A stretch of DNA of 42,975 bases from a virus (IMGVR_UViG_2563366932_000014), one strand, 5' to 3'; positions 1 through 42,975 are shown, numbered from the stretch's first letter. The notes: generated from the sequence alone by a model not told the origin. Translations and numbers: made by a program.

Positions 1-198
1 ATGGCACTGGACAGTTATGCATCTCCGAATATTATTCCGGAGCTAAGACAACCGAATGCCGCAGCAGGTAAGATCACGCTAGGGGGGCTGGACAGAATGG
101 CTGTTACGCCCAGTGTGAAGAAAAGAAGGCTAAGTATGGTAGAATTTCCATACGCACAGACCTTGTTATCCGACTATACAGCCTGGAAGGCACTATGA
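1..198 (+). CDS. hypothetical small protein (65 aa), first gene of a two-gene operon
   Basis: ORF starts at window position 1; its stop overlaps the next start (ATGA at 195-198), suggesting translational coupling; no recognisable family. Confidence 0.3.
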   Translation: MALDSYASPNIIPELRQPNAAAGKITLGGLDRMAVTPSVKKRRLSMVEFPYAQTLLSDYTAWKAL

Positions 199-983
199 CA
201 AATCTACAACTGGAAGAAAGATTTAGGGCGCTTGAGAAAGATTACGATGCGCTCATTTCCACAAAATATACTGCGCAGAACGTTCTCACTCACACTATGG
301 AAACCTATGTTGATTCTGGTAAATATAAAAACTGGATCGCCAGAGTGAAAAAGTTAATAGAGGACAGCTACGGAAAAGAGTCTGATTATTACAATGACTT
401 CAATACTGTAAACAGCAGGTGGTCTTCTAATTACAATACACTGATCAAAAGTTATAAACCGTTGTTTGATGCGGCGAGAGATGATCTTGCGCACTCTGCT
501 GTCAGTACTAATACTCCTCAAGAAGGTTCGCCGCTGAGCCTCGTACTTAATATTCTTAACAGGTTTCCGACCTTTGTTCGCCAGTTAAAGAGGCGGTACA
601 ACGGCCGTGCGCCGCTTGAAGTTAATGATGAGTATGACGTACAGGATTTGATTTATGCACTGCTGACGCTTCATTTTAATGATATTAGGGCGGAAGAGTA
701 TACCCCCAGCTTTGCGGGCGCGGCCTCAAGACAGGACTTTCTTTTGAAAAAAGAGAAAATTGTGATAGAGGTGAAGAAAACCCGTGAATCTCTGGGAGCG
801 GGTAAAGTTGGTGGAGAGTTGCTTATTGATATGGCGCGCTACCGCGCTCACCAAGACTGCGATACGTTGATCTTGTTTGTATATGACCCGGATTGCTACA
901 TAAATAATCCTTTGGGCGTGAAAACCGATCTGGAATCTAAAGACGCGGAAGGAAAAGTGAAGGTTGTTATTGCGCAGTTCTGA
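195..983 (+). CDS. hypothetical protein (262 aa) with C-terminal PD-(D/E)xK-like nuclease motif
   Basis: long ORF coupled to upstream ORF; C-terminal residues ..EYDVQDLIYALL.. and ..EKIVIEVKK.. fit a D...(D/E)xK pattern by eye; fold not verified. Confidence 0.5.
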   Translation: MTNLQLEERFRALEKDYDALISTKYTAQNVLTHTMETYVDSGKYKNWIARVKKLIEDSYGKESDYYNDFNTVNSRWSSNYNTLIKSYKPLFDAARDDLAHSAVSTNTPQEGSPLSLVLNILNRFPTFVRQLKRRYNGRAPLEVNDEYDVQDLIYALLTLHFNDIRAEEYTPSFAGAASRQDFLLKKEKIVIEVKKTRESLGAGKVGGELLIDMARYRAHQDCDTLILFVYDPDCYINNPLGVKTDLESKDAEGKVKVVIAQF

Positions 984-2301: not shown

Positions 2302-2715
2302 TAGACTGGCCCCCTGAATCTCCAGACAACCAATATCACTTATTTAAGTGATAGTCTTAATACTAGTTTTTAGACTAGTCATTGGAGAGCAGATGATTGA
2401 TGTCTTAGGACCGGAGAAACGCAGACGGCGTACCACACAGGAAAAGATCGCAATTGTTCAGCAGAGCTTTGAACCAGGGATGACGGTCTCCCTCGTTGCC
2501 CGGCAACACGGTGTGGCAGCCAGCCAGTTATTTCTCTGGCGTAAGCAATACCAGGAAGGAAGTCTTACTGCTGTCGCCGCCGGAGAACAGGTTGTTCCTG
2601 CCTCTGAACTTGCTGCCGCCATGAAGCAGATTAAAGAACTCCAGCGCCTGCTCGGCAAGAAAACGATGGAAAATGAACTCCTCAAAGAAGCCGTTGAATA
2701 TGGACGGGCAAAAAA

Positions 2716-3735
<1,020 letters not shown>

Positions 3736-4675: not shown

Positions 4676-6625
4676 ATGATTGTTCTAAATCAGATTAACT
4701 CCTCACTTTTGTACAATGTCGCTTACAGGTATACCATGAAATCCGAGACGCTAACTGTCCAACAACTTTTTCAAGACCGCCGACAATACTGTGTTCCATT
4801 CTATCAACGTGCCTATGTATGGACTCAGCAAGACCAGTGGTCAGCTCTACTGGAGGATATCCTAGAGAAAGTACAATCCCGGCTCTCGGGTACAAAACCA
4901 ACTCCCCATTTCCTTGGTGCGGTTGTACTGGAACCTCAATCAAAAAAAGGATTATTAGGTGTAGATTCCATACATATTATTGATGGTCAGCAACGATTGA
5001 CCACTCTTCAATATGTTCTGGCATCCATCCGATTAGCATTACGTGCTACGGATCTTTCCAGCTTAGAGGCTCTCATTTCGCCTTGCCTGAAAAACTCAAA
5101 CGAAGACACAATGCGAAATAAAGAAGTAGAACGCTTCAAACTGTGGCCAACTTTTCGGGATCAAACTCATTTTATTCAAAGTTTTAATGTTGAAAATATT
5201 GACGATCTCCGGGACGTATTCTCTGATAGTTTCACGCAGCATGGTACGTTGCGTAAGCATTTTAATCACCCGCCATCACTAGAAGCATTATGTTTTTTTA
5301 CTGAAGCCTTTATAAAATGGATTAAAATAGAAAACCACTCACCACAAGAAAATGCTGTAGCTCTAATTGAGGCTGTCTTAACAGATCTGAAACTGGTAAG
5401 CATATTTCTCGAAGCTGAAGATGATGCCCAAATAATTTTTGAAACATTAAATGGGCGAGGGGCGGAACTTCATGCTACGGATCTTATTCGCAACTATATC
5501 TTTATGTGCGCTGAGCATGAAAATATTAATGCTATTGAATTATATGAAAATGAGTGGAAGAGCTTTGAAGATAAATACTGGTCGGAAAAACAACGCCGTG
5601 GACGTATTAATAAACCACGCATGGAGTGGCTAGTACATGCGACATTGCAATCAGAAAGGCAACGTGAAATTGATCTGTCTCGCCTTTACAATGAGTATCG
5701 TGATTATGTAAGTAAGGACTTGTCTTCACAACGAGCAGATCTGCAAGTAAAGCGCCTCAAACAATATGCATCACAATATAAAGAATTGGTTGATGGTTTT
5801 GGCACAACCCCCATCTCACACTTTGGATATCGCATCGCAGACTATGATGTGACGACACTTTATCCGCTTGCTTTGTTCATTTCGATAGCTAACATCGCTG
5901 ATGATGAGAAAGCAGCCATGTATAATGATCTTGTCTCCTACGTAGTACGAAGAGCCGTATGTGGCCTGACGCCAAAGAATTACAACAATGTATTTATGAA
6001 TGTATTGCGGCACTTGGCTAAAACGGAAATTTCCAGTGTTGAGTTACGTAATATCCTCAATAACTTAAATGGCGAAGCCTCACGTTGGCCTGGTGACTCA
6101 GAATTTCTCAACGCTTGCATCAATGCTCCACTTTATCCTGGCAGGCTCGACGCACCGAAAATGCGCTCAATGTTAACGGAACTTGAAAGAGAACTTTGTC
6201 GCCAAGTAAAGACAGAAAAGCCTGATGTTCCAAATCTTTCTAATCTCGATATCGATCATCTTATGCCTCAAAGTTGGTATTCCTGTTGGCCTCTCGAAAA
6301 TGGTCGTATGGTGACAAATTCAGATGCTACGGTATTGAACCAAATTGTTCTGTCTGGAACCGATCTTACCCCTGAACAGCTACTGGTAAGGAAACGGCAA
6401 CAAGCGATATCTACTTTGGGAAATCTAACTTTGCTTAACCTTAGCGTAAACCGTTCTGTTCAGAATGCTGTATTTCTGAAAAAACGTGATGCTCTCATCG
6501 TCCACACCAATCTACGACTGAACATTCCACTTATAGTTAAGGATAAATGGGATGAGGATGAAATCCTGGAGCGGGGTAAAAAGTTGGGGGAAATTGCATT
6601 GAAAGTATGGCCAAAACACGATTAA
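4676..6625 (+). CDS. GmrSD-family (DUF262 N-terminal, DUF1524/HNH-like C-terminal) putative type IV modification-dependent restriction endonuclease
   Basis: 649-aa ORF; N-terminal ..FYQRAYVW.. and DGQQR motif; C-terminal ..DIDHLMPQS.. and ..NLSVNRSVQN.. His-Me finger-like; AT-rich by inspection; start may be the ATG at 4736. Confidence 0.65.
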   Translation: MIVLNQINSSLLYNVAYRYTMKSETLTVQQLFQDRRQYCVPFYQRAYVWTQQDQWSALLEDILEKVQSRLSGTKPTPHFLGAVVLEPQSKKGLLGVDSIHIIDGQQRLTTLQYVLASIRLALRATDLSSLEALISPCLKNSNEDTMRNKEVERFKLWPTFRDQTHFIQSFNVENIDDLRDVFSDSFTQHGTLRKHFNHPPSLEALCFFTEAFIKWIKIENHSPQENAVALIEAVLTDLKLVSIFLEAEDDAQIIFETLNGRGAELHATDLIRNYIFMCAEHENINAIELYENEWKSFEDKYWSEKQRRGRINKPRMEWLVHATLQSERQREIDLSRLYNEYRDYVSKDLSSQRADLQVKRLKQYASQYKELVDGFGTTPISHFGYRIADYDVTTLYPLALFISIANIADDEKAAMYNDLVSYVVRRAVCGLTPKNYNNVFMNVLRHLAKTEISSVELRNILNNLNGEASRWPGDSEFLNACINAPLYPGRLDAPKMRSMLTELERELCRQVKTEKPDVPNLSNLDIDHLMPQSWYSCWPLENGRMVTNSDATVLNQIVLSGTDLTPEQLLVRKRQQAISTLGNLTLLNLSVNRSVQNAVFLKKRDALIVHTNLRLNIPLIVKDKWDEDEILERGKKLGEIALKVWPKHD

Positions 6626-26460: not shown

Positions 26461-26562
26461 TTAAAGTGGGATCTAACTCTAATAATTTAAAAAATTTAAT
26501 TGGGTCTTGATATTAATCACATAGACTCAATGCTCTTTAGTTCTTACATAGGTGGTTGTATT

Positions 26563-27003
26563 ATGAGTATCCCCAGTTTAGATGTTCATAAAGTTGTTAA
26601 GTGCGCAGAGCATAAAAAGGCTTTAGATGCAATATCTCTCAAACTTAAGAATAACATTATTGACTCAAGCTCTGAATACGATTTTCTTGGCGACACAATA
26701 ATTTTCAATAAAGATAAAAAAAATAGGTTAACCCTCAAACTTTCAACATATGAACTAGAACTTATTTTCAAAGAAACACTGCTAGTCATTGATGAAGCTC
26801 CTGTATTGAAGTTTGCTGCCATTGACCCAACCGATGAAAATAACAACGAGCTGATTGATTTATTTTTATCCAAAGGTGGATTTATTTATATTAGAGAATA
26901 CAAATCCGAGCCACATTATGAGTATGGCGACACTTCTCTATTTTTACATATACTTGACGCTACTCTTAAAGAGCTTAAATCTGCAAACAAAATATCCTAT
27001 TAA
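26563..27003 (+). CDS. hypothetical protein, AT-rich insertion transcribed against the late operon
   Basis: ORF with AGGTGG RBS before the ATG at 26563 (listed ORF starts at 26500); very AT-rich by inspection; no recognisable family. Confidence 0.5.
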   Translation: MSIPSLDVHKVVKCAEHKKALDAISLKLKNNIIDSSSEYDFLGDTIIFNKDKKNRLTLKLSTYELELIFKETLLVIDEAPVLKFAAIDPTDENNNELIDLFLSKGGFIYIREYKSEPHYEYGDTSLFLHILDATLKELKSANKISY

Positions 27004-27109: not shown

Positions 27110-27361
27110 TCATTTTTTAGCCATCTCAATTGCGGCATCAAAAAGTCGTTCAAGAATAAAATCAGGGTACTGTAATTTTTCTTGCTCGATATGAAGCTCA
27201 TAAATTTTCCCTTCCCACTCCCATTTAAAATTAAATCCAGAAGCAGAAGGTGCGAAATGTGTTTTAGCTTTAGGGTTAGCGTAACCAGCAACAGTCAACA
27301 CATCAAACTTAAAATCTTGAGGTTTAATACGCATAATCATATCCTTTGCCAAGTTCATCAT
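27110..27361 (-). CDS. hypothetical protein (83 aa)
   Basis: AT-rich ORF between the lysis cassette and packaging genes. Confidence 0.4.
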   Translation of the reverse strand: MMNLAKDMIMRIKPQDFKFDVLTVAGYANPKAKTHFAPSASGFNFKWEWEGKIYELHIEQEKLQYPDFILERLFDAAIEMAKK

Positions 27362-28785: not shown

Positions 28786-29121
28786 TTATTTTACATCCCA
28801 AGGTAGTTCCTCAAGAGAGAAGACTAATTCATTATCAATAATTTCGTATTCTGCATAACCTTCAACCTCTCCTGAGAAGTTATTGTCAACGCATCCTTCA
28901 TAATAGCTATATGGTGCTATAAAGTGAAACCCATATTCATCTATCTCTGTGATTTCAAAATTGTAGTAATCGTAAGAATATCGAATATCATCATCAGAAA
29001 TAGAACTAAGTACATAGTTATTAAATTTATCGGAATGCTTAACGATAAGTTCTGACAACGCGTCAAGATTCTCTGGAGAGATATTTCCTAACGGTAATCT
29101 GTACTCAACGGCATTAATCAT
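28786..29121 (-). CDS. hypothetical acidic, aromatic-rich small protein (111 aa)
   Basis: AGGAGG RBS; AT-rich; lies between the late terminator and holin. Confidence 0.5.
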   Translation of the reverse strand: MINAVEYRLPLGNISPENLDALSELIVKHSDKFNNYVLSSISDDDIRYSYDYYNFEITEIDEYGFHFIAPYSYYEGCVDNNFSGEVEGYAEYEIIDNELVFSLEELPWDVK

Positions 29122-35910: not shown

Positions 35911-36585
35911 ATGAAAACAATCCATGACATCCGGCGGTCTAACGCCAGAAAACTGAGAGATGGTGTTGGCGGGAATTCTTCCTTTGCCACTATGATTGAT
36001 CGCGAGCCAACCCAGACCAGCAGGTTTATGGGAGATGGTGCTACTAAAAATATCGGTGACAGCATGGCACGACACATCGAAAAATGTTTCGACCTGCCTG
36101 TCGGATGGCTCGATCAAGAACACCAGACAACGAACATCACAAAAAAACCTGATGTTTCAATCACTAATAAACAAATCACATTAGTCCCTGTCATATCATG
36201 GGTACAGGCCGGAGCATGGAAAGAAGTTGGATATTCTGAGGTTGATTTGAGCACAGCAGAAACGTATCCCTGCCCTGTACCCTGTGGGGAAATGACTTAT
36301 ATCTTGCGGGTGATAGGTGATTCAATGATTGATGAGTACCGCCCGGGAGACATGATTTTTGTCGATCCTGAAGTACCTGCCTGCCACGGTGACGACGTTA
36401 TTGCATTGATGCACGATACAGGTGAAACCACCTTCAAAAGGTTGATAGAAGATGGGACACAGCGTTATCTCAAAGCGTTAAACCCAAACTGGCCTGAGCC
36501 TTACATTAAGATCAACGGTAATTGCTCTATAATTGGTACTGTGATTTTCTCAGGAAAACCAAGAAGATACAAAATCAAAGCCTAA
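35911..36585 (+). CDS. cI-like repressor (HTH plus S24 LexA-like autopeptidase domain)
   Basis: N-terminal HTH; ..VQAGAW.. candidate Ala-Gly cleavage site; ..GDSM.. Ser and downstream Lys of S24 peptidases. Confidence 0.8.
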   Translation: MKTIHDIRRSNARKLRDGVGGNSSFATMIDREPTQTSRFMGDGATKNIGDSMARHIEKCFDLPVGWLDQEHQTTNITKKPDVSITNKQITLVPVISWVQAGAWKEVGYSEVDLSTAETYPCPVPCGEMTYILRVIGDSMIDEYRPGDMIFVDPEVPACHGDDVIALMHDTGETTFKRLIEDGTQRYLKALNPNWPEPYIKINGNCSIIGTVIFSGKPRRYKIKA

Positions 36586-36596
36586 TCAATGTTTAT

Positions 36597-36620
36597 GAAC
36601 CTGCTTCGGCAGGTTTTTTT
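36597..36620 (+). terminator. rho-independent terminator of the cI-like gene
   Basis: aacctgc ttcg gcaggtt followed by 7 T. Confidence 0.7.
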
Positions 36621-36624
36621 ATAC

Positions 36625-36662
36625 TTGACAATGTACCTTTGGGATACATAATGTACCCAAGA
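36625..36662 (+). promoter_or_regulatory. candidate pL-like promoter with operator-like GTAC half-sites
   Basis: TTGACA - 16 nt - CATAAT; AATGTACC repeated twice across spacer and -10. Confidence 0.4.
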
Positions 36663-36787
36663 GAAACAACAAACAGGCAGGACGCCCACGAAGTAGCCGC
36701 CTGGGGCATATGAAGTCCAGGATGATTCGTTAGCAACAAAAAAGCGCCCTATAGGACGCTTCGCTCTTTAACAATCTGGATGACTTA

Positions 36788-37300
36788 TTACTCAGATTTG
36801 AACTTTGGTTCTGGCAAAAGAGGAGGAGTTGAGTCCTCGAATCGTAGCCAGTGCTCCCAGATATCGTGGGATTGTAATTCCAGAAGACCAATTTGACGTG
36901 ATGCAACTGCAGTGCCAGCTATAGTTCCTCCTGCATAATCAACCTGGACGGACTTTGACGCTTTCTCAATTAATTCTGTCCAAGCTTCACTTTCCGCGTT
37001 AAAAGAAGCAGTTAATTCCTGCAGACGCTGTGGATCATCCTTGTTGTCTTGTTTCAAACGATTCAGGGCGGCCACCGAATACTTATTCTTAACCCAACTA
37101 ACCTGAGCTAACTGAACTCTCTGACAAGCGTCCATATCAGTAGTTGTTTCCTGAGGCATATCAAAGCAGGAAATAAAAAAAGTCTCAACACCATCATTTA
37201 GACTACTGCTCGGCTGGTTCAAAGCATCAGAAGCATTGGATGCTATCGGTATTATCAGTGCTACCGACAGAATCAAACGTTTAACATAAATCGCTCCCAT
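36788..37300 (-). CDS. secreted DUF1311 (LprI-like lysozyme-inhibitor family) protein
   Basis: N-terminal signal-peptide-like segment (..LILSVALIIPIASNA); family call from recalled similarity; GAGGGG RBS. Confidence 0.55.
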   Translation of the reverse strand: MGAIYVKRLILSVALIIPIASNASDALNQPSSSLNDGVETFFISCFDMPQETTTDMDACQRVQLAQVSWVKNKYSVAALNRLKQDNKDDPQRLQELTASFNAESEAWTELIEKASKSVQVDYAGGTIAGTAVASRQIGLLELQSHDIWEHWLRFEDSTPPLLPEPKFKSE

Positions 37301-37586
37301 TTAATTATCCCCTCTAAGAACAGAGTCATCCAGATTAGCCGAATCCTTGTTGTTGGGGAATAACCAGGCCCACCTCGCCTGATGTGGCTAAAAGCAGGCA
37401 CATAACAGCTAAGTATTTTCAACCAGAGAGAATCCTTAGCGTTGTGGTGAATGCGGCTCAGCGCACGCGGGTTAAGGTTGAGGCTGACAGTCGACCTTCT
37501 GTGGATACCCACCCGCCTGGTGTGCAACCTTCGCCAGGCACCGGGAGGCACCCGGCACCACAACTTTATGCTGTGTGTAGTCCTGG

Positions 37587-37632
37587 CGGTACCAGCTTGT
37601 ACCCTTGCTTCCGGCTGGTACCGCTCTTTTTA
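37587..37632 (+). terminator. strong intrinsic terminator within the early-left leader
   Basis: perfect 11-bp stem gcggtaccagc/gctggtaccgc, 17-nt loop, then TCTTTTT. Confidence 0.55.
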
Positions 37633-37768
37633 CAAAACAGAGAAGAGCATCACCGGACGACGGGCTCATAACCCAATCCACCCGGGCGGCTGCCACCGCA
37701 GGTGTTCTTCTCTGTTTTGTGGAGAAACCAACCGACCTTGCAGGGTCGATATGATGAGGAGCAGCAAA

Positions 37769-38131
37769 ATGGCTAGCGAACGCAGTACCAACGTGCAGGA
37801 ATTTATCGGGGAGCTGGACGGCGGCGTATTTGAAACCAAAATCGGCGCAGTTCTCAGTGAAGTCGCTTCCGGTGTGATGAACACGAAAACCAAAGGTAAG
37901 GTCTCGCTCAACCTGGAAATCGAACCGTTTGATGAGAACCGTGTGAAAATAAAACACAAACTCTCATATGTTCGTCCGACTAACCGCGGGAAAATTTCCG
38001 AAGAAGACACCACCGAAACGCCGATGTATGTCAATCGCGGTGGTCGCCTGACTATTCTGCAGGAAGACCAGGGACAATTACTGACTCTTGCCGGTGAACC
38101 TGACGGAAAACTCCGCGCAGCAGGTCATTAA
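37769..38131 (+). CDS. hypothetical early protein (120 aa)
   Basis: GAGGAG RBS then ATG at 37769; the listed 226-aa ORF's N-terminal part is Arg/Cys-rich translation of the structured leader. Confidence 0.5.
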   Translation: MASERSTNVQEFIGELDGGVFETKIGAVLSEVASGVMNTKTKGKVSLNLEIEPFDENRVKIKHKLSYVRPTNRGKISEEDTTETPMYVNRGGRLTILQEDQGQLLTLAGEPDGKLRAAGH

Positions 38132-38196
38132 TATCGTTCTTAATTAACTGATTATTTATCTCATCACTGAATATCTTTATATAGTGAGGACTTATT

Positions 38197-39021
38197 ATGT
38201 CTCAGAACTTAGACGCAACCGCAATTAATCAAATCCATGCCCTTATTTCTGCTCAGGGTGTTAATGAAATTATCAGTAAGATTGGTGCCGACGCAGTGGC
38301 ATTACCTGAAAATTTCCGCATTCATGATCTGGAAAAATTTAATTTAAATCGCTTCCGTTTCCGTGGTGCGCTTTCCACTGCCAGCATCGATGACTTTACC
38401 CGTTATTCTAAAGATCTTGCGGATGAAGGCACCCGCTGCTTTATCGATGCCGATAATATGCGTGCCGTCAGTGTGCTTAACCTGGGTACTATTGATGAGC
38501 CTGGTCACGCAGATAACACCGCCACTCTCAAACTGAAAAAGACAGCACCGTTCTCTGCTCTGTTGTCTGTTAACGGCGAGCGTAACTCCCAGAAGTCACT
38601 GGCAGAATGGATTGAAGACTGGGCCGACTACCTTGTGGGCTTTGATGCTAATGGTGATGCCATTCAGGCAACAAAAGCGGCTGCGGCAGTCCGTAAAATC
38701 ACGATTGAAGCAAACCAGACCGCTGATTTTGAAGACAATGACTTCAGCGGCAAACGCTCCCTGATGGAGTCTGTCGAAGCGAAGACCAAAGATATTATGC
38801 CAGTGGCATTTGAATTTAAATGCGTTCCGTTTGAAGGCCTGAAAGAACGTCCGTTTAAATTACGCCTCAGCATTATCACTGGCGATCGTCCTGTACTGGT
38901 TCTGCGCATTATTCAGCTGGAAGCAGTGCAGGAAGAAATGGCTAACGAATTTCGTGATCTGCTTGTTGAGAAATTCAAGGACAGCAAAGTAGAAACCTTT
39001 ATTGGTACTTTTACCGCCTGA
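38197..39021 (+). CDS. DUF2303 / YfdQ-like prophage protein (tentative family)
   Basis: 274-aa ORF with GTGAGG RBS; family from recalled similarity. Confidence 0.5.
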
Positions 39022-39148
39022 TTTCATTACTGCAAATGCCCCTGCGGGGGCATTTATGGAAACGTAATTGACTCAATAATCGCCGGATGGTGAGGGCTTT
39101 CTTTTACCAGAATTCAGCGCGGTGCAGCGCATATACGTGGAGAACAAA

Positions 39149-39673
39149 ATGTCATTTATTAAAACTTTTTCCGGGAAGCATTTTTATTATGACAGGATAA
39201 ATAAAGACGACATCGTTATTAACGATATCGCGGTTTCTCTTTCAAATATCTGTCGCTTTGCAGGACATCTTTCACATTTCTACAGCGTCGCCCAACATGC
39301 GGTGCTTTGCAGCCAACTGGTACCGCAGGAATTTGCTTTTGAAGCGTTAATGCATGATGCAACAGAAGCGTATTGCCAGGACATCCCGGCGCCACTGAAA
39401 CGCCTTCTTCCTGACTATAAACGGATGGAAGAAAAAATAGACGCCGTAATCCGTGAGAAATACGGGTTACCCCCGGTTATGAGTACGCCCGTGAAATATG
39501 CCGATCTCATCATGCTGGCAACCGAACGCCGCGATCTCGGGCTTGATGATGGCTCTTTCTGGCCCGTACTGGAAGGTATCCCGGCAACAGAGATGTTCAA
39601 AGTTATTCCACTGTCGCCAGGCCATACCTATGGGATGTTTATGGAACGCTTTAAAGAGTTAACTGAGTCGTAA
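39149..39673 (+). CDS. HD-domain phosphohydrolase
   Basis: H..H and ..LMHDATEAY.. HD motif; GGAG RBS before the ATG at 39149; listed ORF starts at 39122. Confidence 0.6.
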   Translation: MSFIKTFSGKHFYYDRINKDDIVINDIAVSLSNICRFAGHLSHFYSVAQHAVLCSQLVPQEFAFEALMHDATEAYCQDIPAPLKRLLPDYKRMEEKIDAVIREKYGLPPVMSTPVKYADLIMLATERRDLGLDDGSFWPVLEGIPATEMFKVIPLSPGHTYGMFMERFKELTES

Positions 39674-39781
39674 AAATCAGCACGTACGAATTCAAACTCT
39701 GCCATAAAAGAACATATAAGTAATTTATTAACATATAGATATAGGTTATATTACAAATTGAAAAATTATTGGAGAGCAACA

Positions 39782-40648
39782 ATGAATCAAAATCCATTCT
39801 CATTCTATGACTTTCTTGGATATTTAATACCAGGTGGTTTTTTTATCCTATTAATGTATTTCTGTGGTTTGACATTCGATCTAGATATTGTTATTGACTT
39901 AAGTGAATTGCTCAGAGGTCAAAGTCAAATCTTTGGCATTTTGAACTACGCTTCAATAGTTATTATATCTTATATAGCTGGACATTTTATTTCTATCACG
40001 TCAGCATTTTTTATCGAAAAATACATGAATAAAGAATTAGGATATCCTTCCAAATATCTATTTAAAAAATTGATAGATACCTCAGAAAGCATTTGTAGCC
40101 CATCATGCGATGAGAGAAGCGCTGATAAAAAAACAAAAATAAAGAATCGCATAATCAAATGCGTATTATGTCCAATAATACTATGGGATTTTATAACACA
40201 AAAACTATGTTATTCTCAATCTCTACCATTTCATTTAGCTAATACAACATGGTTAATGATCAAAGAAGGTTATGAGAAAAAGTTCATAACAAATCGCCAA
40301 TTATTACAAGATAAAAACGGACTTGATGATGATCTCTTCAGATTGGCATATCATTATGTTTATGAGTTTTCAAAACAACATCAAACAAAAATTCAAAACT
40401 ATGTTGCATTATATGGTTTTTGCAGAAACATATGTTTAATCTTTATAATTTCATTTTGGGTATCAGTTCCAACCTTTATTTATCGATTATGTACTCATAG
40501 TGATTATCTTTATAGTTTACTTTCAATAATGCTTAGCTTTTTCTTCGTCTATGTTTTCTATGTTGGTTTTGTTAAATTTTATAGAAGATATACTTTAGAA
40601 GTATTAATGGCATTTGCTGTACTTCAAAGTAACGACACTATTCGTTAA
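39782..40648 (+). CDS. very AT-rich four-TM membrane protein of unknown function
   Basis: two N-terminal and two C-terminal hydrophobic helices around a ~140-aa soluble region; GGAGAG RBS before the ATG at 39782; listed ORF starts at 39758. Confidence 0.55.
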   Translation: MNQNPFSFYDFLGYLIPGGFFILLMYFCGLTFDLDIVIDLSELLRGQSQIFGILNYASIVIISYIAGHFISITSAFFIEKYMNKELGYPSKYLFKKLIDTSESICSPSCDERSADKKTKIKNRIIKCVLCPIILWDFITQKLCYSQSLPFHLANTTWLMIKEGYEKKFITNRQLLQDKNGLDDDLFRLAYHYVYEFSKQHQTKIQNYVALYGFCRNICLIFIISFWVSVPTFIYRLCTHSDYLYSLLSIMLSFFFVYVFYVGFVKFYRRYTLEVLMAFAVLQSNDTIR

Positions 40649-40650
40649 TA

Positions 40651-40896
40651 ATGTTGCTCCCGTGTGCAGACGGGATAATGGAGAAACGTATGCTGAACCT
40701 CGATTGTGTTCCTATCTCAACTTATTGCAAAGAAACTGGCGAAACTCCTGAAGCAATAAACAAACGTGTACAGCGCGGTGTTTGGCGTGAAGGTGTTCAG
40801 GTTTTAAAGGTTGAAGGCGTTAAGGAGAGGTGGATTGATCTTAGTGAGGTTGCAAAATGGGCCAGACAAAACTGCTCAAACTACCGCGCGGCGTAA
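40651..40896 (+). CDS. excisionase-like protein
   Basis: small basic protein immediately upstream of and overlapping int; true start may be an internal Met. Confidence 0.55.
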   Translation: MLLPCADGIMEKRMLNLDCVPISTYCKETGETPEAINKRVQRGVWREGVQVLKVEGVKERWIDLSEVAKWARQNCSNYRAA

Positions 40897-42029
40897 CAAT
40901 CAGGAAACACCACCAGGGAGAAACGATCAATATAACTTTCACCTACAAAGGAGTTAGATGTCGTGAGCCGCTTTCCAATCTGGAAGTAACACCAAAGAAC
41001 ATTAAATACGCCGAGCGTACACTCGGCGAAATCCATAATAAGATCGAAAGGGGAACATTCATTTATGCAGAATATTTTCCCCGTTCTGCTCGTTTGAAAA
41101 TTTTTGGTAATGCTGCTGCAAGCAAAACGGTAAAGATGTACCTGGACGAATATCTTGAAATCTGCGAAACAAGAAAACTTTCACCCTCTACGATTGGTGG
41201 CTATAAAAAATGCCGTAGTGCGTTAGCCTCACTTCACATTTGCCCTGCAAGTGAATTAACACCAGCAACCCTGAAAGCGTGGATTCAAAGCCAGAAAACA
41301 ACCTTAAAAACCATTCGCAACCAGTTATCTTTCCTACGGTCAGCACTTGATGAAGCCGTGACCGATGGGGTACTTCAAATTAACCCCGTATCGTTAGTAA
41401 CAGCTTCGCGCTACCAAAGTGATAAGTCAGAAGCAGAAAGCAGCTATGTGGTTGATCCGCTATCACCAGCAGAAGTTGATGCATTACTAGCAGCAGCCGG
41501 AAACAAACAATGGGAAAATCTGTTCCGGTTCGCCATACATACAGGCCTGCGTAGTTCTGAATTATGTGCCCTACGATGGCATGATATCGACTTTGTTGGA
41601 AAAACAGCCCATGTTCAGAGCGCAAGTGTTGTCGGAGTTATCAAAGGAACAAAGACAAAAGCCGGTACCCGTAAAGTTGAACTGACTGAAGAAGCAATGT
41701 TGGCGTTGATAAACCAGAAGCCATTTACATTCATGAAGGATGCTACTGTCTTTGAAGATCCAAAGACCAATAAACCCTGGGCAAGTGCTGATGCAATTAG
41801 GAAAAAAGCATGGGTGCCAACATTGCGAAAAGCAGGTATTCGTTACAGAAACCCATATCAAACCAGGCATACATTCGCCACCAGCCATATCAGCCGGGGA
41901 GCAAACCTGTTTTGGCTTGCGGCTCAAATGGGCCATAAAGGGCCTGAAATGTTATTCAGGCACTATGGACAATACTTGAAAGAGTATGATGGGAGGGCAA
42001 GTATCAAGGATAAAAAGGCTTTATTTTAA
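40857..42029 (+). CDS. tyrosine integrase with N-terminal arm-binding domain
   Basis: N-terminal ..LPRGVTIRKHHQGETINITFTYKGVRCRE..; C-terminal R, H-x-x-R and Tyr (..HTFAT..FRHYGQYL..) motifs. Confidence 0.85.
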   Translation: MGQTKLLKLPRGVTIRKHHQGETINITFTYKGVRCREPLSNLEVTPKNIKYAERTLGEIHNKIERGTFIYAEYFPRSARLKIFGNAAASKTVKMYLDEYLEICETRKLSPSTIGGYKKCRSALASLHICPASELTPATLKAWIQSQKTTLKTIRNQLSFLRSALDEAVTDGVLQINPVSLVTASRYQSDKSEAESSYVVDPLSPAEVDALLAAAGNKQWENLFRFAIHTGLRSSELCALRWHDIDFVGKTAHVQSASVVGVIKGTKTKAGTRKVELTEEAMLALINQKPFTFMKDATVFEDPKTNKPWASADAIRKKAWVPTLRKAGIRYRNPYQTRHTFATSHISRGANLFWLAAQMGHKGPEMLFRHYGQYLKEYDGRASIKDKKALF

Positions 42030-42638
42030 GTCATTATGCCAATCGTCTACTGTTTGAAACCAAATTTTTAACCTTTGCATAAAGGTACGATCCTTTTTGG
42101 GAGGGTGGTACCTTTGAAAAGAAGTATGTAACGCTTCGATAACTCCCATACAAGCATCAATTACTTCTTGTGCTTTAACCGGGCGATCGGCATCTGAAAG
42201 CTTGTGAGCGACCTCACAATCCAGAGTTGCTTTCTCTAGTACAGATGAGAACACCTCGTCAGGTATATACAGTCCTCTGCTTTCCAAAATGCAAATCAGT
42301 TTGGAAACTTGTTGAGCTTTAGCCAAGATAGTTAACAAGTATGAAACAGAAGCCTTTGTTCTATCCTTTTGCAACCTTAACAATCGATGCTTTGATGCTC
42401 TAATTTTAGGTTGAGTTGTCTGACTGAGCCAATAGTTAGAAGAAATATCAGAAATTTCAATAACTAACTTTGAAATAGCATCAATAATTGATTTCGATTC
42501 AGAACGTGTCGCCAGTTTTACAGAATTATTGTACGCAACTCGCCATCCAATGAAAACTAAGCAGACGCTAACTACTGTGATACACCACGAATACTGTCCT
42601 ATTTGTGCTACTAATGACATTGGTTCCGTACTGATCAA
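42021..42638 (-). CDS. membrane-anchored hypothetical protein (205 aa)
   Basis: one N-terminal TM helix; AT-rich; convergent with and overlapping the int stop. Confidence 0.45.
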   Translation of the reverse strand: MISTEPMSLVAQIGQYSWCITVVSVCLVFIGWRVAYNNSVKLATRSESKSIIDAISKLVIEISDISSNYWLSQTTQPKIRASKHRLLRLQKDRTKASVSYLLTILAKAQQVSKLICILESRGLYIPDEVFSSVLEKATLDCEVAHKLSDADRPVKAQEVIDACMGVIEALHTSFQRYHPPKKDRTFMQRLKIWFQTVDDWHNDLK

Positions 42639-42648
42639 CTATCGCCTC

Positions 42649-42975
42649 TTATACTCTTTCTGGTTGTGCTAAATCAATAAATTTATCAATCTGTTCTTTG
42701 TAGAACGGAACATCACTTTTTATAATCAAACGTGCTTTAACGTTGGCTTTAGGTATCCCTTCCTTACGGATGAGACCTCCAAACGCCTCTTCTAAGAAAG
42801 AGGAACCAACACCCAGTGCTATACCGCGAAAATCAACCACAATCTCCTGTTCAGTACCCTTCAGCGCAGGCACCAAAAACTCTCTACGAAATCTTTCCGC
42901 ACTGTGTGGGCTATCCGTTGTGTAACGTCCGAAAGGTGTTCTGGAGAACTCCTTCGCTATGACGATATTTCTCAT
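42649..42975 (-). CDS. hypothetical small protein (108 aa), possibly STAS-like
   Basis: ATG is exactly at the window edge; 10-nt gap to the downstream gene; fold suggestion is tentative. Confidence 0.4.
   Translation of the reverse strand: MRNIVIAKEFSRTPFGRYTTDSPHSAERFRREFLVPALKGTEQEIVVDFRGIALGVGSSFLEEAFGGLIRKEGIPKANVKARLIIKSDVPFYKEQIDKFIDLAQPERV

Follow-up and report, generated by a model that had tools for sequence, protein, structure and literature searches.

A solo, prophage-borne four-helix membrane protein of Escherichia coli as a probable distant branch of the Csx27 superfamily, with a possible role in phage exclusion

The 42,975-nt viral DNA IMGVR_UViG_2563366932_000014 (the window, by which we mean this whole stretch) is an E. 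coli lambdoid prophage, and the very AT-rich gene that precedes its excisionase gene is an exchangeable accessory cassette at an integrase-proximal cargo slot. The protein of 288 amino acids that it encodes belongs to a large, highly mobile, partner-free and so far unnamed family with four transmembrane (TM) helices, an assignment which is well supported, and profile comparisons give good support to the view that this family is probably a distant branch of the Csx27 superfamily. The single most likely reading of the gene is that of a solo Csx27-superfamily membrane protein which would act in conflicts between mobile elements, by phage exclusion or by abortive infection, and we give this reading somewhat less than an even chance.

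The ORF runs on the + strand from the ATG at position 39,782 to the stop codon at 40,648, and it is a real gene under selection. At the local base composition stop codons would make up about 8% of codons, so that the calculated probability of a 288-codon ORF arising by chance is p ~1e-11, and the comparison with homologues that are 78-85% identical gave dN/dS values of 0.16-0.23, which indicate purifying selection on the 288-aa gene. Its GC content is 28.4% versus 49.7% for the window, with a GC3 of 21%, the lowest GC among the 55 non-overlapping ORFs of at least 80 aa, and the window's lowest-GC stretch of 867 bp overlaps it. DNA at 28% GC is a typical target of H-NS. An earlier, sequence-only reading of the same DNA had proposed a real ORF of ~288 aa, the most AT-rich gene in the window, preceded by a good ribosome-binding site and placed between early genes and xis/int, and each of these points was borne out, the last by yfdR on the left and xis/int on the right (Table 1).

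Table 1. Features of the 288-aa gene, its product and its surroundings, in positions of the window.
Feature	Position	Strand	Evidence or remark
yfdR (HD-domain 5'-deoxynucleotidase)	39149..39673	+	Left flank; closes the conserved early module yfdP-yfdQ-yfdR
AT-rich one-gene cassette (moron)	~39669..40658		~1 kb, sharp junctions
AT-rich upstream spacer, 108 bp	39674..39781	+	Weak promoter-like hexamers only
Weak promoter-like hexamers TTCAAA-18-TATAAG	39691-39720	+	In spacer
Weak promoter-like hexamers TTATTA-16-TATATT	39725-39752	+	In spacer
Ribosome-binding site GGAGAG	39771..39776	+	5 nt before ATG, read from sequence
Gene for 288-aa four-TM inner-membrane protein	39782..40648	+	RefSeq WP_001075212, annotated 'hypothetical protein'; PHROG 12528; dN/dS
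N-terminal family motif NPFSxYDFLGYLIPG, aa 4-18, with invariant D10; runs into TM1	39791..39835	+	Alignments
TM1 (aa 12-31), TM2 (aa 50-78) and, between them, a short outer loop of low conservation	39815..40015	+	Hydropathy, AF2, conservation
Central domain, aa 79-207 (~129 aa), predicted cytoplasmic	40016..40402	+	Positive-inside, AF2
TM3 (aa 208-236), very short outer loop, TM4 (aa 243-265)	40403..40576	+	Hydropathy, AF2, conservation
Conserved cytoplasmic C-terminal helix KFYRRYTLEVLMA	40577..40645	+	Alignments, AF2
xis, excisionase	40690..40896	+	Right flank, co-directional
int, tyrosine integrase	40857..42029	+	Right flank, co-directional; no terminator between the 288-aa gene and xis

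The prophage is present in UTI89, APEC O1, S88, IHE3034, ATCC 11775 and other E. coli strains, with the gene order yfdP - yfdQ (DUF2303) - yfdR - 288-aa gene - excisionase - integrase. At the opposite end of the same prophage window lie restriction genes of GmrSD-like and DpnII-like type. Of 5426 complete E. coli genomes, 3012 have the yfdQ-yfdR module and 209 the gene itself, which is intact and 100% identical across many E. coli lineages; the xis/int pair occurs in 435 genomes. In most of the matches listed, homology to the yfdQ-yfdR query stops at query position 1472, that is at window position 39,668 in the last codons of yfdR; on the other side, in prophages without the gene, xis/int homology begins at query position 260, or window position 40,659, 11 bases past the stop codon of the gene. 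In sister E. coli prophages, where yfdPQR and xis/int flank the slot in the same way and the excisionase protein is identical, its occupants are yfdS (120 aa) and an ORF of 71 aa. These sharp junctions and alternative occupants show that the gene with its spacer constitutes a discrete cassette of ~1 kb. Among the marks by which a moron, as Hendrix and colleagues use the word, is recognized, we found a fixed position with presence/absence or other filling, as well as the deviant base composition given above; as to an own promoter and terminator, there were weak hexamers only and zero terminators.

That the protein matches no family, as had first been thought, holds for Pfam, in which we found none at E <= 0.1 for the target and none for 97 diverse members of the family, one of which has a weak match to SieB (E = 0.0013, 1/97) that the target itself does not share. 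It does, however, belong over its full length to PHROG 12528 (E = 8e-174; profile positions 1-288 aligned to residues 1-288), which is a cluster label with no function attached, and it is a distant relative of Csx27. Other than Csx27, NCBIfam gave scattered chance matches only, and no PADLOC defence model matches the target beyond weak matches to Csx27 and tm_4. A sequence search recovered homologues that are 78-93% identical in Salmonella, E. fergusonii, Citrobacter, Klebsiella oxytoca, Shigella and Hafnia, and relatives of about 50% identity in Enterobacter and Cronobacter. When 1.84 billion cluster representatives were searched with a profile, 952 clusters of relatives (clustered at 50% identity) came up at E <= 1e-3, with 211 of them at E <= 1e-30, and these matches are mostly full-length, with 270-300 aa; in a second profile search the matches listed are all 'hypothetical' and without a Pfam domain, and the relatives listed by the sequence search likewise bear the name 'hypothetical'. 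Longer relatives were inspected for fused soluble domains, a possibility we rejected, the extra parts being additional hydrophobic segments or low-complexity tails only. Among species-representative genomes, the family is found in Gammaproteobacteria, Betaproteobacteria, Bacteroidota (many of them Flavobacteriia), Bacillota, Chloroflexota, Acidobacteriota, Gemmatimonadota and others. Our literature search found neither experiments on any family member nor any mention of 'Csx27-like', 'Csx27 family' or 'Csx27 homolog', and on four-TM anti-phage proteins encoded by prophages next to an integrase gene it brought up nothing beyond one paper on lambda Rex and one general review.

The surroundings of the family members are varied. 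When five genes per side were clustered at 78 loci from different species, no recurrent neighbour appeared, and the 147 immediate neighbours belong to 139 different Pfam families, the commonest of which, phage integrase, occurs 4 times. BLAST clustering, together with Pfam and PADLOC scans of these neighbours, led us to reject a conserved partner gene. In 78 of 79 loci the gene has a higher AT content than its flanks, by a mean of 10 points of GC and by up to 27 in Pseudomonas, and for the genes two to five positions away the mean difference is 0. In IMG/VR prophage contigs, an integrase gene lies within 1.5 kb downstream in 47 of 72 loci. Among IMG/VR contigs that carry homologues of at least 48% identity and extend far enough, decayed remnants being left out, the integrase starts 200-494 bp downstream, at ~200-280 bp in all but one. 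Three different and unrelated integrase types stand beside homologues in enterobacterial lambdoid prophages, and in induced Klebsiella phages, too, the gene occupies this integrase-proximal place. Near the gene in a second lineage of E. coli prophages there is a TA-type module (SocA_Panacea). Many family members are chromosomal and outside any prophage. Some distant members adjoin type I restriction-modification (R-M) or MADS genes as recognized by PADLOC, and one is located in an integrative island together with genes for a restriction endonuclease, a NYN nuclease, a CyanoTRADDas_TM effector-domain protein, Vsr and a methylase. Others are single-gene insertions adjoining urease or fab operons, one lies within a run of small co-directional ORFs resembling a cassette array, and many distant members have ordinary housekeeping surroundings.

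A second E. coli branch, WP_000193205, which is 42% identical to the target and present in 289 E. coli genomes, is encoded between gpA and the portal gene of P2-like phages. This place is the gpA-gpQ hotspot, an experimentally validated reservoir of anti-phage systems (Rousset et al. 2022, PMC9122126). The arrangement with WP_000193205 occurs at least 161 times in Table S5 of that article, and the protein is absent from its table of systems assayed; the validated P2 hotspot is now seen to hold a family member outside the assayed set. Taken together, and assuming no overlap, the 209 lambdoid-type and the 289 P2-type genomes mean that the family is present in ~9% of the 5426 complete E. coli genomes. 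A DUF4760 gene adjoins the family gene only in the near-identical E. coli P2-like group; the idea that this neighbour is Csx28-like was rejected, as it does not resemble real Csx28 sequences.

The region upstream had been described as AT-rich and promoter-like and as belonging to the gene itself: the AT-richness stands, and the promoter is weakly supported, since the hexamers are weak and a sigma-70 scan of the 108-bp spacer gave no 9-of-12 match satisfying the scanner rules. No terminator was found between the gene and yfdR or between the gene and xis, and no Rfam family matches in positions 36,000-42,975. The ~60 bp adjoining the start codon diverge in parallel with the gene in 78-85%-identical homologues which have differing upstream genes. 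Co-directionality with yfdR and xis, this lack of terminators and of a convincing promoter of its own, and an upstream gene on the same strand in 66 of 72 family loci would all suit an early function of the phage lytic cycle, transcribed from the early-left promoter along with yfdPQR and xis/int, by which the protein, once induction or infection has taken place, would for example exclude superinfectors in the course of lytic growth or change the physiology of the host membrane, while the lysogen stays unprotected. Such a function, which we consider unlikely, agrees poorly with the unrelated small genes that sister prophages carry instead, a replacement which shows that the gene is dispensable for the phage, and with the many chromosomal members outside prophages. 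Moreover, a spacer of ~100 bp or more is usually present upstream in the family loci, and in two divergent homologues it contains a perfect TATAAT.

Hydropathy delimits four hydrophobic segments in the protein (aa ~12-31, 50-78, 208-236 and 243-265), and the AlphaFold2 (AF2) model, built on 97 diverse relatives with a mean pLDDT of 90.6 and a pTM of 0.89, predicts very long helices at 8-31, 48-86, 198-237 and 243-287 around a small helical central domain, so that both predictions confirm the pair of TM helices first noticed at each end. In the 97 members the central domain is basic, with a mean of 18 K+R versus 12.5 D+E, and the outer loops of ~18 and ~6 residues are non-basic and poorly conserved. 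By the positive-inside rule, this basic domain places itself and both termini in the cytoplasm. A soluble domain of ~140 aa with clustered cysteines had also been described; the domain exists, at ~129 aa, and so do five cysteines (105, 109, 127, 130 and 143), but the functional hint falls, because these residues are not conserved even in 78%-identical homologues, and a metal or redox site was rejected for this reason. The stretch that contains them is the one where model confidence and conservation are lowest in the central domain (pLDDT 60 at residues 101-110). The only invariant cysteines among close relatives are C214 and C218, in TM3.

Nine positions are invariant among the 97 members (F6, D10, Y14, Y64, G67, S74, E79, R215 and K265), and the nearly invariant ones include P5, S7, Y9, F11-G13, P17, G18, H68, P89, S90, P131, H191, E195, H200, K203, N206-G212, F263, F266, E273 and M276. 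Besides the N-terminal motif of Table 1, the conserved motifs are GHxxSxxSxxxIE, then GYPSxYL, after TM2; the His/Glu-rich DxFRxxYHYxxExxxxHxxKxQNYVALYGFxR running into TM3; and FxKFYRRFTLExLMA after TM4. In the target, TM2 bears Y64, G67, H68 and S74, and the central domain bears E79, GYPSxYL, P131, D136 and D184-FR-x2-YHY-x2-E195-x4-H200-x2-K203-xQNYVALYG; the invariant R215 marks the cytoplasmic start of TM3 and the invariant K265 the cytoplasmic end of TM4. Nearly all these motifs fall close to, or directly at, those helix ends that face the cytoplasm, and that the conserved face of the protein is cytoplasmic is well supported. At the cytoplasmic end, every helix bears a single invariant charged residue (D10, E79, R215 and K265), and these four residues could possibly form an inter-helix lock or gate. 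The absence of a solved structural relative is also well supported: the AF2 model retrieved nothing from BFVD with Foldseek at E <= 0.001, and a profile search of PDB sequences gave nothing at E <= 1. The position of H68, E79, H191, E195, H200 and D10 near the cytoplasmic membrane boundary, as judged from the sequence, would be in line with a small membrane-interface enzyme, a transporter or an orphan protein giving immunity to a toxin that targets membranes, and thus with lysogenic conversion or another benefit to the host that has no relation to phages. A few members in polysaccharide loci, adjoining glycosyltransferases or epimerases, and some in housekeeping contexts point in the same direction; we nonetheless hold this explanation to be quite unlikely.

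The relation to Csx27 comes from two profile collections. The PADLOC Csx27 profile matches the target over residues 6-268 (profile positions 4-188 of 206, E = 1.4e-5) and 75 of the 97 diverse members, the best of them at E = 2.2e-10; further matches pair residues 6-244 with 4-177, 6-258 with 4-190 and 146-279 with 67-189, and the P2-like homologue is matched over 6-244 against 4-179. Those listed with coordinates are collinear and, in all but one of them, residue 6 is anchored to profile position 4. The NCBIfam Csx27 model matches 18 of the 97 members at E <= 0.01 (best E 2e-6). The consistent collinearity and the usual anchor in the N-terminal motif argue for real distant homology and not for hydrophobic noise. 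We rejected the assignment of the target to Csx27 proper: with the NCBIfam equivalog NF040557 it scores 14.9 bits against a cut-off of 65 (E = 0.02), over the N-terminal 39 residues only, it is longer than the Csx27 profile by ~80 residues, and no cas13b gene or CRISPR array lies near the gene, the longest ORF of the window (among those of at least 100 aa) having 649 aa and none being of Cas13b size.

Csx27 itself serves type VI-B1 CRISPR-Cas systems as an accessory membrane protein (Smargon et al. 2017); in E. coli it repressed interference by two different Cas13b proteins. Its action as an ssDNA channel is a prediction, credited to Makarova et al. 2019 by the papers that cite it. By analogy, the protein might be an anti-defence or regulatory factor that damps a membrane-linked immune effector of the host or of a rival. 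Such a role could draw on the distant collinear homology and on the repression of Cas13b; we judge it very unlikely, given the score far under the cut-off for Csx27 membership, a window free of Cas13b or CRISPR context and 78 loci with no recurring defence partner. Csx27 is also said to be one member of a broad group of four-TM proteins that is associated with competence, ubiquitin-like and WYL genes and includes a subfamily tied to DNA modification at the membrane. Genes of natural transformation, of ubiquitin systems and of the WYL-HTH type are absent from the 25 commonest Pfam families among the 147 immediate neighbours of our 78 loci, and models for type I R-M specificity, methyltransferase, MADS mad3 and MADS mad5 each match 2 of these 147 neighbours, a number too small to speak of an association.

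It is the combination of the cargo slot, the P2 hotspot, the defence neighbours of some members, the link to Csx27 and the foreign composition that makes a role in conflict the most likely one. In the scenario we propose, a horizontally acquired moron of ~1 kb between yfdPQR and xis/int would encode one self-sufficient inner-membrane protein, which would help both prophage and host when they are in conflict with other mobile elements. During infection, the protein would sense or engage something at the cytoplasmic face of the membrane, and it would then block productive entry of the genome or perturb the membrane as in abortive infection, no dedicated partner being needed, unlike for lambda RexB or Csx28. 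Contact with incoming phage parts in the periplasm is opposed by outer loops that are too short and too variable, and these tiny loops together with the conserved cytoplasmic face favour sensing or gating from inside over a periplasmic block of the injection apparatus. We therefore favour an action on the inside, which would be either an Abi-like perturbation of the membrane or an interference with DNA emerging into the cytoplasm, and this is the weakest step of the proposal. Several findings count against a role in conflict as a whole: the only tested relative, Csx27, reduces Cas13b immunity and does not provide it; beyond the weak Csx27 and tm_4 matches, no known defence or exclusion model is matched; the gene lies inside a co-directional early-left/xis/int unit with no convincing promoter or separating terminator; and many distant members are in housekeeping surroundings. 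It is hardly probable that the gene is selfish or neutral cargo, coding for a potentially toxic, xenogeneically silenced membrane protein or an addiction-type toxin, since the very low GC, the solo, widely transferred and partnerless state and the SocA_Panacea module of the second prophage lineage are met by strong purifying selection, many residues invariant across phyla and intact 100%-identical copies in many E. coli lineages.

Going further than a role in conflict, one may picture the family as a new single-gene system against phages and other mobile elements, with a new membrane fold, whose conserved cytoplasmic face would detect foreign DNA or protein, whether incoming or replicating, and gate the membrane independently of any partner. 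This is a doubtful extension; if it were true, characterizing the family would also explain the role of Csx27 in type VI-B CRISPR loci. Should the protein restrict phages, it would be the product of a compact membrane defence gene without a partner, one that is common in lineages of pathogenic E. coli such as UTI89, APEC O1 and S88 and spread over many bacterial phyla, and E. coli would offer a tractable model in which to study the Csx27 branch of CRISPR accessory proteins, as yet unexplained. Should it not restrict them, the sharp boundaries would still make a clean case of how lambdoid prophages exchange modular cargo at the slot next to the integrase gene. For structural work, the model offers a confidently predicted fold that appears to be new.

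Among known systems, lambda RexB resembles the target as a prophage inner-membrane protein with four TM helices and termini predicted inside, and the membrane action proposed for the two during infection is the same. RexB is a protein of ~144 aa without a large cytoplasmic domain, it needs RexA, and its gene lies in the immunity operon and not beside xis/int; the target differs in having no Pfam RexB match and in having yfdR and xis as neighbours instead of rexA. P22 SieA and SieB, lambda SieB, HK97 gp15 and T4 Imm are likewise phage-encoded accessory inner-membrane proteins that exclude other phages. SieA/SieB, gp15 and Imm are smaller than the target, which does not match the SieB family PF14163, and since it has no Pfam match whatever, it is matched by neither RexB nor SieB. 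Several exclusion proteins are thought to act at DNA entry, whereas the conserved surface of the target faces the cytoplasm. Csx28, the accessory pore of type VI-B2 systems (VanderWal et al.), is comparable as a small membrane protein associated with phage defence, and it acts by membrane depolarization. Its fold is nevertheless unrelated, with one TM helix and a HEPN-like domain, it depends on Cas13b, and real Csx28 sequences bear no resemblance to the target. With Csx27, finally, the target shares four predicted TM helices and a profile match which is collinear and nearly full-length, and both Csx27 and the target family are tied to conflict between mobile elements; the target, with 288 aa versus the ~206-223 positions of the Csx27 profiles, is the longer of the two because its central cytoplasmic domain is much larger.

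The position between the yfdPQR early genes and xis/int, which in the window holds the gene for the 288-aa four-TM protein, is occupied in two other yfdPQR prophages (L092 and L095) by different unannotated genes encoding proteins of about 270-330 aa. The matches to these genes are faint, in one case to a PADLOC model of 2TM effectors, in the other to a model of type II restriction endonucleases. The presence of different unannotated genes at the same position fits the idea of this integrase-proximal slot as a general cargo hotspot.

The region past the integrase looks like another variable slot. In the window it carries a 205-aa protein, which has a hydrophobic N-terminus, belongs to PHROG 30059 and is without a Pfam family, and a DUF4325 STAS-like protein. 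In the UTI89 genome the gene of a 303-aa hypothetical protein comes next, with glaH after it, and the genes past the integrase are possibly a three-gene system. Sister prophages with the same integrase present other cargo there, either an AAA ATPase and a Dam methylase or ParA and hypothetical proteins. At the other end of the window, a low-GC stretch directly ahead of the tail-fibre and tail-fibre-assembly genes contains two restriction genes and a transposase gene, the GmrSD-family enzyme comprising both GmrSD_N and GmrSD_C. This stretch has the look of a second cargo region, this one clearly of the defence type, inside the same prophage or next to it.

Smaller candidate accessory ORFs are found elsewhere in the window. 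Three AT-rich ORFs of the late region are possibly further morons; a Pfam scan returned no family for any of them, and the first had no match in a PADLOC scan. The 170-aa ORF near the repressor gene, whose translation reads as hydrophobic at the N-terminus, is matched over its full length by PHROG 7681 (function unknown) and weakly, below the cut-off, by an LprI lysozyme inhibitor (E = 0.006); some sister prophages carry this ORF and others lack it.

Coordinates of the features (in the window unless a locus is named)
Feature	Coordinates	Strand	GC	Remark
DpnII/MboI-like restriction endonuclease	195-983	+		
IS3-type transposase	2348-3621	+		
GmrSD-family type IV restriction enzyme	4676-6625	+		
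AT-rich ORF	26500-27003	+	0.325	
AT-rich ORF	27110-27361	-	0.357	
AT-rich ORF	28786-29121	-	0.333	
170-aa ORF	36788-37300	-		between LexA/S24-type repressor (35911-36585) and yfdP, opposite strand
205-aa protein	42021-42638	-		past integrase
DUF4325 STAS-like protein	42649-42975	-		past integrase; runs off window
Unannotated slot gene	L092 7530-8525			
Unannotated slot gene	L095 7283-8098			
Region of 78%-identical copy of cassette gene	L002-L005 8908-10438			
DUF4760 gene and family member	L174 3464-4843			E. coli 4/1-1 P2-like prophage
ORF series with distant family member	L182 5187-12659			

The cassette gene itself recurs, as a 78%-identical copy, in a second E. coli prophage lineage (L002-L005) near lexA-dinF-plsB. 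Downstream of it, a PrtN/pyocin-activator-like small protein replaces the excisionase of the window, and a gene pair with the SocA_Panacea antitoxin domain comes next. The 8 kb downstream contain no called integrase, and this lineage therefore looks like a decayed prophage end still keeping the cassette.

In P2-like phages (L174 and L096), the gene of a DUF4760 protein, composed of a single N-terminal TM helix and a soluble domain, lies 40 bp upstream of the family member on the same strand, a pair seen only in a near-identical E. coli group. The DUF4760 protein showed no match to Csx28. The ORF is left unannotated in phage record ON470623, small opposite-strand ORFs being called in its place. 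Finally, a distant family member (L182) lies within a series of about 15 small co-directional ORFs, separated by regular spacers of roughly 100 bp and encoding, among others, NADAR, RraB, NTP_transf_6 and acetyltransferases; judged by its layout, this series resembles a chromosomal integron cassette array.
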